Source: a virus
Taxonomy: Duplodnaviria; Heunggongvirae; Uroviricota; Caudoviricetes
IMG/VR virus record: IMGVR_UViG_2778261246_000010
Length of the DNA: 33,479 bases
Direction: 5' to 3' (one strand)
Of the stretch, positions 15,364 through 23,027 are shown piece by piece. The notes under the pieces were generated by a model. The model was not told the origin of the DNA and did not search any database. It saw only the letters and a program-made list of their open reading frames with translations. Numbering within the stretch: position 1 is the stretch's first letter; each line of letters begins with the position of its first letter. The translations under genes were made by a program, and so were the position numbers.

Positions 15364-16012
15364 TGGCAGCAAATACCGAAATATTTGGGTAGTTGGCGAT
15401 CTGCACGGATGCTACACGAACCTGATGAAAAAACTGGAGACGATAGGATTCGACACCAAAAAAGACCTGCTTATCTCGGTGGGCGATTTGGTTGATCGCG
15501 GTACAGAGAACGTCGAATGTCTGGAATTAATCACATTCCCCTGGTTCAGAGCTGTACGTGGAAACCATGAGCAAATGATGATTGATGGCTTATCAGAGCG
15601 TGGAAACGTCAATCACTGGCTGCTTAATGGCGGTGGCTGGTTCTTTAATCTCGATTACGACAAAGAAATTCTGGCTAAAGCTCTTGCCCATAAAGCAGAA
15701 GAACTTCCGTTAATCATCGAACTGGTGAGCAAAGATAAAAAATATGTTATCTGCCACGCCGATTATCCCTTTGACGAATACGAGTTTGGAAAGCCAGTTG
15801 ATCATCAGCAGGTAATCTGGAACCGCAAACGAATCAGCAACTCACAAGACGGGATCGTGAAAGAAATTAAAGGCGCGGACACGTTCATCTTTGGTCATAC
15901 GCCAGCAGTGAAACCACTCAAATTTGCCAACCAGATGTATATCGATACCGGCGCAGTGTTCTGCGGAAATCTCACATTGATTCAGGTACAGGGAGAAGGC
16001 GCGTGGGCATAA
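15347..16012 (+). CDS. ninI: NinI Ser/Thr protein phosphatase (lambda PPase type)
   Basis: GDLHG and GNHE metallophosphatase motifs; colinear with lambda orf221. Confidence 0.9.
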
Positions 16013-16491
16013 GAGAACTAAACCTCACCAAAGAACAGCATGAGTGGCTGAATGGCTGGCTTGAACTGTGGGGCGCATGGGTTTATTCAGGTCGTCTGGA
16101 AAAGCGTATGAGCAGCGTAATAGCGAAGTTCATGGAGAGCGTAGAGCCGGGAAGAGTTATGACAAGGCCAATGTGCAATGATGATGATGGAATGTTGATT
16201 TCTCAGGTCGTCGATTCCGTCATGTGCATTGACAAGAAAGCCTTTGGCATCCTCCTCAGCTACTACGCTCATGGTTCTTCCAAGCACGCCATTGCATCTT
16301 ACTATCATCGCGTCGCAAGACCTCGCAAGATGTTATGCCGTGGCGGCGGGCGCATTCAAAAACCATCGCTCGCAACCTGTCGACGGGAAGTTGACGAAAT
16401 CCTTAATGCCTCGTTGTTTATGATTTGCCCGGTTCTGGATAGTGCGTTTAAAAACCGGAAACGTGTAGAGAAAATTAAACATGTAGCATAG
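16003..16491 (+). CDS. Q: Late antiterminator Q (non-lambda family)
   Basis: Position after ninI and before the late promoter; features shared with the Q-antiterminator family (WGAW, DDD, YY); GTG start overlapping the ninI stop. Confidence 0.65.
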
Positions 16492-16494
16492 AAC

Positions 16495-16581
16495 GTGTTG
16501 ACATCATTGAGCAAATGAGCAACACTATTCGCATAAGCTGCCGTTAGTGACTCTTAAGTTGCAACGGTGGCTTTTTTATTT
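16495..16581 (+). promoter_or_regulatory. Candidate late promoter pR' / qut with short terminator tR'
   Basis: TTGACA at 16498 shortly after Q; GGC-TTTTTTATTT tract at 16569-16580 just before the tRNA genes. Confidence 0.35.
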
Positions 16582-16656
16582 GGGTCAGTCGTATAAAGGT
16601 CATTACGGAAGGCTGTTAACCTTCTTATCGTGGTTCGAGTCCACGCTGTCCCGCCA
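16582..16656 (+). tRNA. tRNA-like gene, anticodon GTT (Asn); acceptor and D stems imperfect
   Basis: Hand-folded cloverleaf: anticodon stem GAAGG/CCTTC with loop CTGTTAA, T-arm CGTGG-TTCGAGT-CCACG, 3-prime CCA; one acceptor-stem mismatch. Confidence 0.5.
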
Positions 16657-16661
16657 AATAT

Positions 16662-16737
16662 GCTGGTTTAGCTCCAATGGTAGAGCAGTCGCCTTGTAAG
16701 CGAATGGGTAGCGGTTCAAGTCCGTTAACCAGCACCA
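16662..16737 (+). tRNA. tRNA, anticodon TGT (Thr)
   Basis: Perfect 7-bp acceptor stem GCTGGTT/AACCAGC, D-arm GCTC-CAATGGTA-GAGC, anticodon loop CTTGTAA, T-loop TTCAAGT, 3-prime ACCA. Confidence 0.7.
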
Positions 16738-16855
16738 TAACTGAGCCGTAGCCACTGGCTATCCTGAACTCATCAGTGATAGTTATGCCGCGGCCTTCTT
16801 TTTTCCCCTTCCCAATATAAGAACTACGCAATCCGTTACTTGCGGAGGCGTTGCT

Positions 16856-17071
16856 ATGAAATCAATGGACAAAATCTCTACTGGCATTGCCTACGGAACA
16901 TCCGCTGGTAGTGCGGGATACTGGTTTTTACAGTGGTTGGATCAGGTCAGTCCGTCACAGTGGGCTGCAATTGGTGTGCTGGGAAGTCTAGTTCTGGGCT
17001 TTTTGACTTATCTGACAAATCTGTACTTCAAAATCAGAGAAGACAGAAGAAAGGCTGCGAGAGGTGAATAA
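16856..17071 (+). CDS. S: Class II holin / pinholin (phage 21 S-type) with dual-start motif
   Basis: 71-aa, two TM segments, MKSM dual-start motif; matches my recollection of the S21 pinholin. Confidence 0.9.
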
Positions 17072-17568
17072 TGCCTCCGTCATTACGAAAAGCTGTTGCA
17101 GCTGCTATTGGTGGCGGGGCTATTGCTATAGCATCAGTGTTAATCACTGGTCCAGGTGGTAACGATGGTCTGGAAGGTGTCAGCTACATACCATACAAAG
17201 ATATCGTTGGCGTATGGACTGTATGTCACGGGCATACAGGAAAAGACATCATTCCCGGTAAAACGTATACCGAAGCAGAATGCAAAGCCCTCCTGAATAA
17301 AGACCTTGCCACGGTAGCCAGACAAATTAACCCGTACATCAAAGTCGATATACCGGAAACAACGCGCGGCGCTCTTTACTCATTCGTTTACAACGTGGGT
17401 GCTGGCAATTTCAGAACATCGACGCTTCTGCGCAAAATCAACCAGGGCGATATCAAAGGCGCATGTGATCAGCTACGTCGCTGGACATACGCTGGCGGTA
17501 AGCAATGGAAAGGTCTGATGACTCGTCGTGAGATTGAGCGTGAAGTCTGTTTGTGGGGGCAACAATGA
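17071..17568 (+). CDS. R: SAR endolysin (phage 21 R-type lysozyme)
   Basis: Gly/Ala-rich N-terminal signal-anchor-release segment followed by a lysozyme domain; start overlaps the holin stop. Confidence 0.9.
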
Positions 17569-17660
17569 GCATGATTTGCTTTTTCATGGCAGCGTTGCTC
17601 GCATTCAATGGCAACGATGCGTGGCCGTGGTTTCTGGCCGTTGGAGTGTTGATGTCATGA
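17565..17660 (+). CDS. Possible 31-aa hydrophobic peptide between endolysin and the Rz-like start
   Basis: Hand-translated [31 protein letters not shown]; ATGA overlaps at both ends. Confidence 0.3.
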
Positions 17661-17806
17661 GTCGGTTAACCGCGATTATCTCCGCTCTGGTTATCTGCAT
17701 CATCGTCTGCCTGGCGTGTGGCGGCGCATTTTCTGGTGTCGTTCATTGTCGGCGTACTGGGCGCAGAGGTTCTGGCATCCTGGCTGGTAAAGCATACAGG
17801 GTTTGA
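17657..17806 (+). CDS. Rz-like i-spanin N-terminal fragment (49 aa), diverging after the TM segment
   Basis: [19 protein letters not shown] matches the lambda Rz N-terminus, then the frame diverges and stops; no embedded Rz1-like lipoprotein found. Confidence 0.35.
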   Translation: MSRLTAIISALVICIIVCLACGGAFSGVVHCRRTGRRGSGILAGKAYRV

Positions 17807-17943
17807 CGGTGCTCCCGTCGACGCACTGTGTGCAGTGCTGGTGTCAGTGGTGTCGGTGAAGATTCTCTCGTTCATCCACCAGCAGGATATTGCATCGCTG
17901 GTGTCCGGTGTGTTCTCCCGCCAGCGAGGCGGAGGAGGCGGTA

Positions 17944-18219
17944 ATGTTAAGTAACCTTCCCGGATTGCTGAATGTGGCGTTATGCACGGTTATCGTGCTG
18001 ACGCTCTTTTTTTATCGTCGTCGCGATTCCAGGCATAAACCGCTGATGTCATGGCTGGCCTGGCTGCTGATGCTGCTGTATGCCTTTGCGCCTCTCAGCT
18101 ATCTGTGTGGTTGCCCGTTAGCAACGGGCTGGCTGGATGTGTTTTTTAATCTGCTGTTCTGCGTGCTGGTGATACGCGCACGCGGGAACGTCACAAGAAT
18201 CTTTCCATTGTTGAGGTGA
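17944..18219 (+). CDS. Small membrane protein (91 aa, about 3 TM segments); holin-like candidate
   Basis: Strong GGAGGAGG Shine-Dalgarno 7 nt upstream; three hydrophobic stretches; immediately upstream of the M15 peptidase gene. Confidence 0.55.
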   Translation: MLSNLPGLLNVALCTVIVLTLFFYRRRDSRHKPLMSWLAWLLMLLYAFAPLSYLCGCPLATGWLDVFFNLLFCVLVIRARGNVTRIFPLLR

Positions 18220-18221
18220 AT

Positions 18222-18599
18222 ATGTCGGGTAAATTCAGATTCAGCCGCCGGAGCGAGAAAAATCTGGAAGGCGTCAAACCACAGCTGGTTGCTGTAGTTC
18301 GCCGCGCCCTTGAACTGTCGGAGGTTGATTTCGGTATTACGGAAGGCCTGCGCACGAAAGAACGCCAGAAACAGCTGGTTGCAGAAGGCAAGAGCCAGAC
18401 CATGAACAGCCGCCACCTGACCGGTGATGCGGTGGATGTTGTGGCCTGGGTTGGCAGCCAGGTGTCATGGGACTGGCCTCTGTACGAGAAAATCGCGCAG
18501 GCATTTAAGCAGGCTGCCGCAGAGCTGGGAACTGCCATCGAATGGGGCGGGGACTGGAAAACGCTGAAAGACGGACCTCACTTTCAGTTGAAGCGTTGA
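18222..18599 (+). CDS. Peptidase M15-family zinc peptidase (VanY-like; candidate second endolysin)
   Basis: SxHxxGxAxD motif present as SRHLTGDAVD plus a downstream His; start 2 nt after the preceding stop. Confidence 0.75.
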   Translation: MSGKFRFSRRSEKNLEGVKPQLVAVVRRALELSEVDFGITEGLRTKERQKQLVAEGKSQTMNSRHLTGDAVDVVAWVGSQVSWDWPLYEKIAQAFKQAAAELGTAIEWGGDWKTLKDGPHFQLKR

Positions 18600-18613
18600 T
18601 AATCAGGTGGGTT

Positions 18614-18796
18614 ATGAGCAGAAAACACTGGACACACAGAATGCCGCGAACGACGGCGAAATGGGCACTGGTAGCGATACTGGTGCCTTTTTTATTGGCG
18701 GGATGCGTCAGCCTGGATAGGGCGCGTCAGCTTTTGGATGCTGCCTCTCAGGTCTGTGAAATTGTCAATGGTGTCCGACAGTGTATGCATAACTGA
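18614..18796 (+). CDS. Small lipoprotein (60-aa precursor, lipobox LLAGC)
   Basis: AGGTGGG Shine-Dalgarno; signal peptide MSRKHWTHRMPRTTAKWALVAILVPFLLAG then Cys; about 30-aa mature part with 3 further Cys; not proline-rich like Rz1. Confidence 0.6.
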   Translation: MSRKHWTHRMPRTTAKWALVAILVPFLLAGCVSLDRARQLLDAASQVCEIVNGVRQCMHN

Positions 18797-18919
18797 ACGA
18801 CTGAAATGGCAGAATATTTTGCTGAAAAATGAAGGGGTGTCCGCGTCCGGAAAGCATGAAATTCTGCTGCGTGTACCAATTTTATCTTATTCATTCTAAA
18901 TCTTGCCGAATCAAGCAAC

Positions 18920-18945
18920 TGCCCGGTCGGCAAGGGGCATTTTTA
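18920..18945 (+). terminator. Putative intrinsic terminator
   Basis: TGCCC-ggtcggcaa-GGGGCA followed by TTTTT. Confidence 0.4.
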
Positions 18946-18957
18946 TCCGGAGGGGAT

Positions 18958-19179
18958 ATGAAGAGATTACTGGTAACCGTAAAGCCCTTTAACGGAACGA
19001 TTCCATTCAGGGTTTTGCAGCGTGGACGTGTTCTGGTTAAGGATATCTTCAGTGGTAAATGCACGGAATGTTATTCCCGGACATATGAAGTGGATGCCAC
19101 GGATGAAGAAATTTCTGTTGAATGTGATCTTAACGCGAATATGGCGGAGATTGTAACAGCCACGTTGTTGCCTGTTTAA
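18958..19179 (+). CDS. Hypothetical late-region protein (73 aa)
   Basis: GGAGGGGAT Shine-Dalgarno directly upstream of the ATG; own upstream terminator. Confidence 0.5.
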   Translation: MKRLLVTVKPFNGTIPFRVLQRGRVLVKDIFSGKCTECYSRTYEVDATDEEISVECDLNANMAEIVTATLLPV

Positions 19180-19222
19180 TGAATGACATAGAATGTCTCT
19201 GGGTACCCAAAAGGAGAACACT

Positions 19223-19438
19223 ATGTTTGTAGAAAATAACCTGAAGGCTGATCCTGATAATCAGGGATGGGTTCTGGGTTGGGCTGTTGTACGTGATAAA
19301 CCGTGGCATCTGGTCGGTATTTATGCAACGGAGGATGGCGCAAAGTCTAAACGCTCTGAATTGAATGGGGAGTATGAAGTTCGTTATGGTTCCCATCGTT
19401 TAGGTAGTGATGATTTTATGTCTGTAGGACTTAGCTAA
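19223..19438 (+). CDS. Hypothetical late-region protein (71 aa)
   Basis: AAAGGAGAACACT-ATG; followed by a strong terminator. Confidence 0.5.
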   Translation: MFVENNLKADPDNQGWVLGWAVVRDKPWHLVGIYATEDGAKSKRSELNGEYEVRYGSHRLGSDDFMSVGLS

Positions 19439-19460
19439 CTGGCTGTGATGCCTGTTTGTA

Positions 19461-19485
19461 GCCCCGCAAATGCGGGGCTTTTTAT
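19461..19485 (+). terminator. Intrinsic terminator
   Basis: GCCCCGCA-aa-TGCGGGGC followed by TTTTTAT. Confidence 0.7.
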
Positions 19486-19499
19486 ATCTGGAGACGATA

Positions 19500-19796
19500 A
19501 TGGAAAAAACAGAAAACAAACCGGTTGTAATTGGTGCTGTGGCTGTTCCGTTTAAGTTTGAACTTTCACAACTGGTGGAAATGTGCATCAGTGATGAATG
19601 GGGTGAGGTTAAAGCCCGCGCTCAGTATACGGATGGCGAAAACCAGTACTTACTCCACTACAAAGCTGCTGATGGTCGCGCCACGACGGAGTGGTTTGGT
19701 GAGTCAATGCTGGAAGCAACAGAAGATGATCGCCATCCTGGCTGTCCGGTATTTGCCGGTATGAAATTACCGGAAGGCACGGTCGTTACTGAGTAA
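19500..19796 (+). CDS. Hypothetical late-region protein (98 aa)
   Basis: GGAGACG Shine-Dalgarno; ORF follows the terminator. Confidence 0.55.
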   Translation: MEKTENKPVVIGAVAVPFKFELSQLVEMCISDEWGEVKARAQYTDGENQYLLHYKAADGRATTEWFGESMLEATEDDRHPGCPVFAGMKLPEGTVVTE

Positions 19797-20164
19797 CAGC
19801 AGGCATTACAGCAGCCCTTCACACAGAGGGGCTGCGATAATGTGAGAAATAAAAAACAGGTCACAGGGAGCCGCTACACAGAACCGGCTGGCGAAGACCG
19901 CCAATACCACCCATGCATTGATGCAGTATACTAATGACAATAGCCGCTATTGATGTAAATGCAATGTTATACATCGACGAAAATAAAAAACCGGCAGGGG
20001 AAATCCAGTAAAGATTTGCCGGTGGCAAAAGATGGCCATGCTTTCAACCTTAGTCGCAGGGTTACGGAATGCAACAACAAATGCCACAGGTATATGGCTG
20101 AATGGTGTTTCAATGATGTACGTCATCTTATCCTTAAATGTTAATGACAGGTGTTCTCATTTTT

Positions 20165-20215
20165 GCGGGTCCTCCCGGAGGGGTGGCTTACCACGGGGCG
20201 GGAGCGTCGCGGAAA
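20165..20215 (+). other. Candidate cos site (cosN), about 190 bp upstream of the small terminase gene
   Basis: ...ccACG GGGCGGGAGCGT CGCGG... parallels the lambda cohesive-end context (ACG GGGCGGCGACCT CGCGG); AT-rich cosB-like tract follows. Confidence 0.5.
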
Positions 20216-20391
20216 AAGGCTAGTTTTTGCATTTCCATGGCGGCGGCAGCATGTTCGGTAATTTATTGATAATTAAAAGTTATTTCTCTTTTCGCCTGTA
20301 CAATATTTTTTTCTCCCTGTCATTAGACTAGTTTGCAATTAATTGAAATATATAAATAAACCCGATTTTCACCTGCCAGATGGAGTTGCTT

Positions 20392-20919
20392 ATGTCAAAT
20401 GTGAGCGGGATCGGTGATGCTTATTACTGGAGTGTTTTTAAAATCGCCGAGGCCTTTGGGCTTCACCGGGACACAGTAAAAAAACGGCTCCTCGCGGCCA
20501 ACACTCCTGTGGCAGCGACTGTCAGGGGGAACCCCGTTTACGCCCTGCAGCATGTCGGGCCTGCCCTGTTTAGTGTGAAGCATGAGGCAGCAGACTCTGT
20601 TCATGATCCATCCCGTATGGAGCCGAAAGAGAGAAAGGACTGGTACCAGTCTGAAAATGAAAGGATCAAGCTGGAAAAGGAGCAGCGAAAACTCATCCCC
20701 GTTGATGAAGTAGTCATCGTCTATTCGTCCATGAGAAAGGCTGTCGTCCAGGTTCTGGAGACAATTCCGGATGTTCTTGAGCGCGATTGCGCCCTGACTC
20801 CTCAGGCCGTCGGCGTTGTACAGCAGGCCATTGATGACCTGCGATACACTCTTCAGGAAAAATCCTACGAGGCTTGTGCTGCTGAATTAATTCCTGATGA
20901 GGAAGGAGAGAGTCTCTAG
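20392..20919 (+). CDS. Terminase small subunit (Nu1-like)
   Basis: N-terminal HTH-like region and ELIP C-terminal tail resembling Nu1; directly upstream of the large terminase. Start could also be the ATG at 20380. Confidence 0.65.
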   Translation: MSNVSGIGDAYYWSVFKIAEAFGLHRDTVKKRLLAANTPVAATVRGNPVYALQHVGPALFSVKHEAADSVHDPSRMEPKERKDWYQSENERIKLEKEQRKLIPVDEVVIVYSSMRKAVVQVLETIPDVLERDCALTPQAVGVVQQAIDDLRYTLQEKSYEACAAELIPDEEGESL

Positions 20920-20927
20920 GAGGAATA

Positions 20928-23027
20928 ATGGGTTTTTCATCAGCCCGAAATTTGGGAAGGGACATATCGGCAGGATTTTCCCCACCACGTCGCATGCCGA
21001 TTTCGGAGGCTGTTAAAAAATTCATGCGTGTTCCCAAGGGGGCTGGTAACTCGGTGCCATGGGATCCTGAACTGACACCCTACATCATTGAGCCCATGAA
21101 CTGCCTGGCATCGCGTGAATACGATGCGGTGATTTTTGTTGGTCCTGCGCGAACAGGGAAGACCATTGGTCTGATCGATGGATGGATTGTCTATACCATC
21201 GTTTGCGATCCTTCGGACATGCTCGTTGTGCAGATGACCGAAGATAAGGCCCGCGAGCATTCTAAAAAGCGCCTCGACAGAACGTTCAGAAGCAGTGCGG
21301 CGGTAAAGAAAAGAATGAGTCCACGTCGTAACGACAATAATGTTCATGATAAGACGTTCAGGGATGGCTCGTTCCTTAAAATTGGTTGGCCCTCGGTCAA
21401 CATTATGTCGTCGTCGGATTACCGGTTTGTCGCCTTAACCGATTACGACCGTTTTCCGGAGAATATCGACAGCGAGGGTGATGGTTTCTCCCTGGCCTCA
21501 AAACGTACCACCACATTTATGTCCGCCGGGATGACTCTGGTGGAGAGCTCGCCGGGACGTGACATCTGCGACAGCAAATGGCGACGTAAGTCGCCTCATG
21601 AAGCGCCACCGACGACTGGTATTCTTTCCCTTTACAATCGTGGTGACCGCCGCCGCTGGTACTGGCCATGTCCGCACTGCGGTGAATATTTTCAGCCAGC
21701 CATGGATGCCATGACCGGCTACCGTAATGAACCGGATCCCTTTAAAGCCAGTGAGGCGGCGTATCTACTTTGCCCGCACTGCAGCGGCATTATCACTGCG
21801 GAGAAAAAGCGTGAGCTCAATAGTGCAGGAGTCTGGTTGCGTGAAGGTCAGGTCATTGATCGTAACGGCAACGTTTCCGGTGAACCGCGCCGCTCCCGTA
21901 TCGCCAGTTTCTGGATGGAAGGGCCAGCTGCTGCGTATCAGACCTGGGCGCAACTGGTTTACAAATTACTGACTGCAGAACAGGAGTATGAAGCGACAGG
22001 AAGCGAAGAAACACTCAGGGCGGTTATCAACACCGACTGGGGATTGCCTTATCTTCCTCGTGCCAGCATGGAGCAACGAAAAAGTGAATTGCTTGAGCAG
22101 CGGGCAGAGCCAGTTCCTTCCCGCAGTGTGCCGGATGGCGTTAATTTCCTTGTGGCGACAGTGGATGTGCAGGCGGGACGTCATCGCCGTTTTGTGGTTC
22201 AGGTAACAGGCTATGGCAGTCGTGGCGAACGCTGGATTATTGATCGTTACAACATCACGCAGTCATTGCGCAGTGACTGCGACGGGGAGAGCCAGCGAAT
22301 TGATCCGGCCAGCTATCCGGAAGACTGGGATGTCCTGCTGACAGATGTTTTTCATAAAAGCTGGCCGCTGGCCTCCGATCCTTCTCAACAAATGCGACTG
22401 ATGGCAATGGCGGTGGACTCCGGCGGTGAAGACGGGGTCACTGATAATGCCTATAAATTCTGGCGTCGTTGCCGTCGTGATGGCCTTGGTAAACGTATTT
22501 ACCTGTTTAAGGGCGACAGCATCCGGCGCGCAAAACTGATCAGCCGTACATTCCCTGATAACACCGGACGAACGGGCCGACGGGCGCAGGCCGCAGGTGA
22601 TGTGCCGCTCTGGCTTCTTCAGACGGATGCCCTGAAAGACCGGGTGAATAACGCGTTATGGCGTGACTCGCCAGGTCCCGGCTATGTGCATTTCCCTGAC
22701 TGGCTGGGGAGCTGGTTTTACGACGAACTGACGTATGAAGAGCGGAGCAGTGACGGGAAATGGAGTAAGCCGGGTCGCGGTGCCAACGAAGCTTTTGACC
22801 TGATGGTGTATGCCGAGGCTCTGGTCATTCTGCATGGATACGAAAAGATCCGCTGGCCGGATGCACCGGAGTGGGCGAGCCGGGAAACCTGGCTGGAGTG
22901 TGTCCCGGACAGTACCGAACCGTCACCCTCACCGGAACCGGTATCCACGCCTGTTAAAAAACAAAAACGGAAGAAAACAGTAACTGACGATGTTAACCCC
23001 TGGCTGACTTCCGGAGGATGGTTATGA
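20928..23027 (+). CDS. Terminase large subunit (GpA family)
   Basis: 699-aa ORF with an ATPase P-loop-like VGPARTGKT and Zn-finger-like CPHCG...CPHC; AGGAGGAATA Shine-Dalgarno. Confidence 0.9.
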   Translation: MGFSSARNLGRDISAGFSPPRRMPISEAVKKFMRVPKGAGNSVPWDPELTPYIIEPMNCLASREYDAVIFVGPARTGKTIGLIDGWIVYTIVCDPSDMLVVQMTEDKAREHSKKRLDRTFRSSAAVKKRMSPRRNDNNVHDKTFRDGSFLKIGWPSVNIMSSSDYRFVALTDYDRFPENIDSEGDGFSLASKRTTTFMSAGMTLVESSPGRDICDSKWRRKSPHEAPPTTGILSLYNRGDRRRWYWPCPHCGEYFQPAMDAMTGYRNEPDPFKASEAAYLLCPHCSGIITAEKKRELNSAGVWLREGQVIDRNGNVSGEPRRSRIASFWMEGPAAAYQTWAQLVYKLLTAEQEYEATGSEETLRAVINTDWGLPYLPRASMEQRKSELLEQRAEPVPSRSVPDGVNFLVATVDVQAGRHRRFVVQVTGYGSRGERWIIDRYNITQSLRSDCDGESQRIDPASYPEDWDVLLTDVFHKSWPLASDPSQQMRLMAMAVDSGGEDGVTDNAYKFWRRCRRDGLGKRIYLFKGDSIRRAKLISRTFPDNTGRTGRRAQAAGDVPLWLLQTDALKDRVNNALWRDSPGPGYVHFPDWLGSWFYDELTYEERSSDGKWSKPGRGANEAFDLMVYAEALVILHGYEKIRWPDAPEWASRETWLECVPDSTEPSPSPEPVSTPVKKQKRKKTVTDDVNPWLTSGGWL

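Follow-up and report, generated by a model that had tools for sequence, protein, structure and literature searches.

A moron is a piece of added DNA of deviant G+C content that carries its own promoter and terminator, which allow it to be expressed from the repressed prophage; HK97 gene 15 and lambda bor and lom are the classical examples (PMC3594210). Phage phi80 carries tai/ati upstream of its packaging module and expresses ati from the Q-controlled operon (PMC11364771), and the Tab/anti-Tab pair of JBD26, in which Tab is a protein of 83 amino acids (aa), is arranged much like it (PMC10884400). In both pairs, small genes adjoin the packaging genes; the one on the sense strand is expressed as part of the late operon, and the antisense one in the lysogen (PMC11364771, PMC10884400). 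Here we describe three small open reading frames (ORFs), orfA, orfB and orfC, that lie between the lysis genes and the cos site of a lambdoid prophage, represented by the IMG/VR virus record IMGVR_UViG_2778261246_000010. (The whole stretch of DNA analyzed, 33,479 nt, is referred to as the window.) The three ORFs constitute two evolutionary modules, not three: a mobile orfA-orfB cassette and a backbone gene, orfC.

Like the classical morons (PMC3594210), orfA-orfB is extra DNA of low G+C content with a terminator at its 3' end, placed in a known hotspot. Unlike them, it has no detectable promoter, comprises two genes, lies on the strand of the late operon and has predicted cytoplasmic products; orfC is not inserted relative to its closest relatives. 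With the TaiEcA/AtiEcA 'non-contiguous operon' of phi80 (PMC11364771), the locus shares the niche between the lysis genes and cos and the presence of an antisense ORF, here m59, beside orfC. As with atiEcA, small genes would lie inside a Q-dependent late transcript, although in our case expression is inferred. However, there is no Tai-like gene of ~200 aa, and both orfA and orfB run in the sense direction; searches with phi80 orf62-66 (blastp and tblastn) against the proteins and DNA of the window gave nothing below E 0.03. JBD26 combines an antisense moron that has its own promoter with a sense late gene (PMC10884400), and relatives of orfB also occur antisense in structural operons of Pseudomonas. 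These relatives lie between tail genes I and J, whereas Tab lies between terminase genes; the two are likened by arrangement and size, and JBD26 was not among the matches of a tblastn search with orfB. Direct homologues are found in phiP27, which has the orfC homologue L33 without orfA and orfB, and in mEp237, where gp060 (mEp237_060) belongs to the orfA family and gp061 (mEp237_061) is a homologue of orfB. All of these are annotated as hypothetical. The Gifsy defence protein GiPD474, which contains an ATPase domain, was also considered and is unrelated.

Two modules between the lysis genes and cos

The genes and flanking elements that define the two modules are as follows:

18958..19179, + strand: orfA, 73 aa, family phrog_2571; Shine-Dalgarno (SD) sequence GGAGG; ratio of non-synonymous to synonymous substitution rates (dN/dS) 0.19
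19223..19438, + strand: orfB, 71 aa, family phrog_4280; SD AAGGAG; 4-7 synonymous against 0-1 non-synonymous changes
19500..19796, + strand: orfC, 98 aa, family phrog_1935, which includes phiP27 L33; SD GGAG; dN/dS 0.19
18867..19483, + strand: orfA-orfB cassette, 617 bp in place of 87 bp, delimited by homology breaks against the related loci L002, L143, L146 and L156
18901..18944, + strand: weak, non-canonical terminator-like element 5' of orfA; minimum free energy -20.2 kcal/mol, z -1.66
19460..19487, + strand: canonical intrinsic terminator at the end of the orfA-orfB cassette, found by terminator scan; z -3.16
19801..19842, + strand: conserved hairpin directly 3' of orfC; z -7.8, without a T tract on either strand

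All three ORFs are genuine genes, more than chance reading frames. Each has its SD sequence 5-7 nt ahead of the ATG, matches a PHROG family (E 4e-28 to 5e-57) and has 48-72 homologous protein clusters, and the dN/dS values, obtained by comparison with homologous loci (approximately 0 for orfB), show purifying selection. It is from the family matches, the sets of homologues and the dN/dS values that we conclude that the genes are real. None of the three PHROG families has a function attached to it, and the RefSeq label for all three is hypothetical protein. An initial annotation of this DNA had described three ORFs of these lengths, with good SD sequences, between the lysis region and cos; coordinates, SD sites and the cos ends agree with that description. 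Their conservation in related prophages is borne out by dozens of homologues of each.

Are they three units, as the same annotation proposed? About 200 related loci were retrieved from IMG/VR with the three proteins, and the neighboring genes were mapped. DNA homology to four relatives with an empty site (L002, L143, L146 and L156) ends at 18866 and restarts at 19484, and the DNA in between runs from the weak hairpin and its T5 through orfA and orfB to the strong terminator. The gene at the left flank of this insertion site encodes a lipoprotein and is the final gene of a phiP27-type lysis cassette. Among the 79 loci anchored on orfC, it lies directly upstream of orfC in 77, and orfA and orfB are missing from 71. 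Between the lipoprotein gene and orfC lie ~177 nt in 68 of those 77 loci and ~710-720 nt in seven. The usual layout is holin, M15 endolysin, lipoprotein, orfC and packaging genes, as in phiP27, where orfC is L33.

orfA and orfB, on the other hand, form one conserved gene pair. In 41 of the 66 distinct loci with orfB, an ORF of the orfA family on the same strand ends no more than 200 nt 5' of it. These partners are 74-81 aa long, with identity down to ~35%, and include mEp237 gp060; the two genes are separated by 43-120 nt and do not overlap. With orfA and orfB a single pair and orfC part of the backbone in the 68 of 77 loci that lack the insert, the idea of three independent units has to be given up.

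The cassette has a G+C content of 44.6%, the lysis genes having 54.2% and the terminase genes 52-54%, a deviation that amounts to just the 17th percentile among 617-bp windows; orfC (48.1%) is close to the window mean of 49.6%. Thus, the moron layout that had been suggested for all three genes fits orfA-orfB in part: the cassette is extra DNA, of deviant G+C content, with a terminator of its own, but no promoter was found. It does not fit orfC, which is present at all 77 lipoprotein-gene loci and is followed merely by a hairpin that lacks a T tract.

Both members of the pair also occur alone. Solitary orfB accounts for the remaining 25 of the 66 distinct loci and is found in prophages of Serratia, Pseudomonas and Vreelandella; in the latter two, the relative is antisense, with tail gene I on one side and J on the other. 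Next to this antisense gene, just 5' of J, a canonical terminator lies on the strand of the tail genes, at 5891-5911 of L003 and 5868-5887 of L005 (- strand). orfA without orfB is found behind Rz in 28 sequenced Shiga toxin (Stx)-converting and related phages. In the Stx phages, the start codon of the orfA homologue shares bases with the stop codon of Rz (ATGA), so that the homologue is simply one more gene of the late operon. In strain M00057, orfA stands by itself ahead of a nohD terminase gene of lambda type.

The stretch from the lysis genes to cos is a hotspot for cargo, here of the ordinary mosaic kind seen in prophages. Of 5426 complete E. coli genomes, 32 have the cassette and 160 have the orfC segment, and the sequenced phages with orfA, with orfB and with orfC form disjoint sets. 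An alternative gene order, C-A-B, is found in L115. L150 (2627-3194) has two more small ORFs at the lipoprotein gene, upstream of orfA-orfB-orfC, one encoding a Cys-rich protein of 68 aa and the other a protein of ~95-133 aa, so the same hotspot takes other cargo as well.

Hairpins, promoters and late expression

The initial annotation placed hairpin/T-tract terminators before the first and third ORFs. The one ahead of orfC is upheld: the sequence at 19460-19479 reads AGCCCCGC-AAAT-GCGGGGCT, an 8-bp G+C stem followed by TTTTT, with a z score of -3.2. Of 65 distinct loci, 28 have a terminator-like hairpin behind orfB, and the stems are unrelated in sequence, so it is the structure, not the sequence, that is conserved. 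The element ahead of orfA is weaker. Its stable stem (18901-18935) stops 4 nt short of the T5 tract, an alternative fold has a 5-bp stem with a 10-nt loop, and the terminator scan made no call there (z -1.7).

The hairpin that follows orfC, AGGCATTACAGCAG-CCCTT-loop-AGGGG-CTGCGATAATG, is of another kind and does not appear in the initial annotation. In 17 variants, 98.7% of the positions are paired, with four compensatory pairs, and none of 500 shuffles equals it. It recurs at module boundaries and is also found 5' of orfA in C-A-B loci. Many E. coli genomes and phages (cdtI, phi458) retain only 19737-19842, the last 20 codons of orfC together with the hairpin. Possible roles are as an element that bounds or links modules, or as a signal for the formation of RNA 3' ends or for processing.

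How are the three genes expressed? The relevant upstream feature is the following:

16003..16491, + strand: Q-family antiterminator gene, from the RefSeq annotation of the identical locus in E. coli RM10740 and the ORF list

A scan of 16500-21000 with a crude sigma-70 consensus, which weak, activator-dependent and alternative-sigma promoters would escape, found no + strand site and a single site on the - strand, compared to 4.8 expected. The best score in the 160 nt 5' of orfA was 5.6, against a mean of 6.4 in shuffled sequence, and the same scan of the empty-site relative L143 was also without a site. A sigma-54-like motif (TGGCA...TTGC) at ~18807-18824 was dropped because its spacing is wrong. 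The T tract is only 4 nt from the SD sequence of orfA, and the terminator stem only 10 nt from that of orfC; no promoter fits into gaps of this size. The hairpins would therefore insulate the genes from upstream transcription rather than enable their expression. The arrangement had been thought to allow expression from the prophage, a view that finds no support in the scan, which gave no + strand sigma-70 site, or in the hairpins.

In lambdoid phages, RNA polymerase modified by Q passes through terminators (see also PMC11364771). With a Q gene upstream and no promoter found, expression of all three genes from the late transcript is the simplest reading. Judged from the sequence, the likeliest source of expression is read-through of the Q-antiterminated late transcript, by which the ORFs would be carried as passengers. 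Their proteins would then be made during lytic growth, and the post-orfB terminator would halt only those transcripts that are not antiterminated.

The proteins and what they might do

The three proteins are acidic (pI 4.6-5.3), with maximum Kyte-Doolittle values over 15 residues of 0.5-1.6. No lipobox, signal peptide or transmembrane segment was found in any of the three sequences; orfA and orfB lack a hydrophobic segment, and orfC has a weak one. The products are predicted to be soluble and cytoplasmic, not envelope-targeted. Neither as single sequences nor as profiles did orfA, orfB or orfC have a match in Pfam, NCBIfam, PADLOC or PDB sequences. The initial annotation recognized no function in them, and our searches, which gave no family with a function attached, are in line with that.

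The orfA protein is probably all-beta. An exhaustive profile search revealed a small family of 43 representative clusters; a match to a 602-aa multicystatin was rejected as a short-motif match inflated by repeats. Four longer proteins with the orfA domain (P0175, P0184, P0188 and P0189) have no informative Pfam partner domain, the sole Pfam match among them being a sub-threshold one of P0189 to Phage_Tail_Tip.

The orfB protein has two invariant motifs, DPDNxGWVLGW and YGSHRLGSDDF; S57, H58, D63 and D64 are among the residues that do not vary. Its AlphaFold model has a predicted local distance difference test (pLDDT) score of 94.5 and a beta-beta-alpha-beta-beta topology, with no structural relative among solved structures or predicted viral structures. 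UniRef gives the name DUF2188 to one homologue (P0157), but this name was rejected: a Pfam scan of 23 members of the orfB family at E<=10 gave no match to DUF2188, only sub-threshold ones to DUF7336 and DUF7457.

The orfC protein is very acidic, with a net charge of about -9, and 92% identical to phiP27 L33; homologues of its core are found in Yersinia, Burkholderia, Bordetella and P2-like phages. Its structure model is poor (pLDDT 49.8), and weak fold matches suggest a small beta-barrel at most. The 90%-identity cluster that includes orfC carries the names HNH endonuclease and YajD, for proteins of 116 aa. This is an artefact, as direct comparison shows no similarity, and it probably stems from L34 (116 aa), the gene that follows orfC in phiP27-like phages. 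(That L34 is the HNH protein is inferred from its length of 116 aa, its position after orfC and the presence of HNH names in the cluster of orfC.) To name orfC after its cluster would be to mislabel it.

What, then, are these genes for? In our reading, orfA-orfB is a mobile cassette that sits in a backbone of phiP27 type, with the lipoprotein gene on its left and orfC on its right, and orfC and the hairpin behind it belong to that backbone. All three ORFs would be non-essential accessory genes of the variable lysis-cos region. Their small, soluble proteins may bind proteins of the host or of rival phages and so serve counter-defence, self-immunity or exclusion, a task that orfA and orfB would share. 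By analogy to Tai/Ati and Tab/anti-Tab, the nearest precedents in function, such a role in conflict during lytic growth is the most likely function, but it is a guess, held with low confidence. For the explanation as a whole (an accessory cassette plus backbone orfC, Q-dependent late expression and a function in conflict) we estimate a probability of about 0.55.

Several points weigh against it. Beyond the promoters that a crude scan would let through, L110, which has a diverged cassette, shows a plausible promoter (TTGTCA-16-TGTAAT) 3' of the upstream terminator, and to judge from their orientation, the antisense copies of orfB in tail operons must have a promoter of their own. From promoters like that of L110 and from the antisense copies, it follows that the cassette could also be expressed in the lysogen. 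Since orfA and orfB are each solitary in many phages, joint action is not obligatory. Finally, the function in conflict finds no direct support in PADLOC, Pfam, NCBIfam or PDB matches or in homology to Tai or Ati.

A more specific version, which is possible but doubtful, is that orfA-orfB is an undescribed two-protein conflict module, either an anti-defence pair or an exclusion protein with its modulator, of which antisense orfB, in tail operons of Pseudomonas and Halomonas-group prophages, would be a self-sufficient form driven by its own promoter.

That the genes are three autonomous morons, each with its own promoter in the repressed prophage and Bor-like effects on the host such as serum resistance, adhesion or envelope exclusion, is unlikely. 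Lambda bor occupies the matching location, the cassette has the low G+C content and the terminator of a moron, and the antisense relatives of orfB in tail operons must be transcribed by themselves. The site is, moreover, a recognized moron hotspot (PMC11364771). However, a + strand promoter-like site was not found, and the hairpins leave only 4-10 nt to the SD sequences. orfA-orfB is a single unit and orfC is backbone, and translation of orfA is coupled to that of Rz in Stx phages. The analogy to Bor drawn previously is not supported either: the proteins have no envelope signals, Pfam gave no match to Bor at E<=0.1, and the genes share their strand with the late operon.

It is also improbable that orfC assists DNA packaging or head maturation as an accessory factor. 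The gene adjoins cos or terminase genes in phages of four unrelated types, namely phiP27 (L33, L34, cos), the present prophage, Yersinia phage vB_YpM_44 and ESSI2. In the P2-like ESSI2, it lies between termS and the adaptor gene, and the strongly acidic character of the protein would suit such a role. On the other hand, orfC follows the lipoprotein gene (77 of 79 loci) and no single terminase type, and it is missing from most prophages that have the same DUF1441/GpA-type terminase. Only 160 of the 5426 genomes have the orfC segment, compared to 2303 that match some part of 18600-20400, and many genomes retain nothing but its final 20 codons and the hairpin. A core homologue in Burkholderia phage Bcep176 is even found in the early region. 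Since orfC tracks the lysis cassette, a role in packaging is not favored.

Least likely of all is that orfA and orfB make up a prophage-borne pair of the type II toxin-antitoxin or abortive-infection kind: the genes are small, adjacent and co-oriented, their pairing is held across divergence, and the unit moves between phages with a terminator at its end, but searches of Pfam, NCBIfam and PADLOC gave no toxin-antitoxin or defence family, neither a promoter nor an operator could be detected, the genes are separated by a gap rather than overlapping, and solitary orfA (28 phages) and orfB (25 of 66 loci) are a poor fit to a toxin and its antidote.

The prophage setting and its meaning

A lambdoid prophage of E. 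coli RM10740 matches the window at 100% identity, the sole difference being an IS3 element in the first holin gene of the chromosomal copy that is missing from the window. Other features around the two modules are as follows:

18614..18796, + strand: gene for the 60-aa lipoprotein, lipobox LLAGC; phrog_7528 at E 8e-35, with a weak Rz-like spanin match
19806..19940, - strand: m44, second antisense small ORF; dN/dS 0.48
19947..20126, - strand: m59, antisense ORF of 59 aa, SD AAGGA, between orfC and cos; dN/dS 0.28
20196..20207, + strand: cosN region, sequence GGGCGGGAGCGT, from the ends of the Tritos and cdtI genome records

On the + strand, the Q gene is followed by genes for tRNA-Asn and tRNA-Thr and then by the lysis genes; an Rfam scan of 16400-20500 had no match besides these two tRNAs. 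The lysis region (16856-18796) is a tandem pair of cassettes joined via recombination. The first has a phage-21-like holin, a signal-anchor-release (SAR) endolysin and an Rz that is cut off after ~19 codons (from ~17650). The second, of phiP27 type, consists of a holin fragment without its N-terminus, a holin with three transmembrane segments, the M15 endolysin (18216-18599) and the 60-aa lipoprotein. No intact two-component spanin is evident in these cassettes. A strong terminator-like hairpin (an 11-bp stem, then T6) lies at 18663-18688, within the part of the lipoprotein gene that encodes the signal peptide, and is kept in relatives, e.g., at 3693-3718 of L143.

Downstream of orfC, ~580 bp are without an annotated gene in the RM10740 record, and the packaging genes begin with a DUF1441-type small terminase (20380) and a GpA-like large terminase (20928). 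The cos cut falls at 20195/20196, since the record of phage Tritos starts at window position 20196 and that of phage cdtI finishes at 20195; the sequence GGGCGGGAGCGT at this site resembles lambda cosN. Many homology breakpoints among E. coli genomes are positioned at ~20212-20213.

The two antisense ORFs accompany orfC in 41 of 79 loci. m59 may be a gene: the annotation of strain RM13752 has it as a 52-aa hypothetical protein, family searches with it were without a match, and no promoter was detected for it. Like lambda bor and phi80 taiEcA, m59 and m44 run opposite to the late operon, and they would be better candidates for expression in the lysogen than the three + strand ORFs.

The unit to study is the orfA-orfB pair, not three single genes, and assays in the lytic phase are likelier to show a phenotype than tests on lysogens, e.g., for serum resistance. 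Among the single genes, orfB is the best candidate: it is found widely in Gammaproteobacteria, hardly varies, models well and is evidently autonomous in other phages. The lysis-cos region of lambdoid prophages holds genes for defence and counter-defence, e.g., Tai/Ati, and the small unannotated proteins encoded there are candidates for a part in such conflicts.

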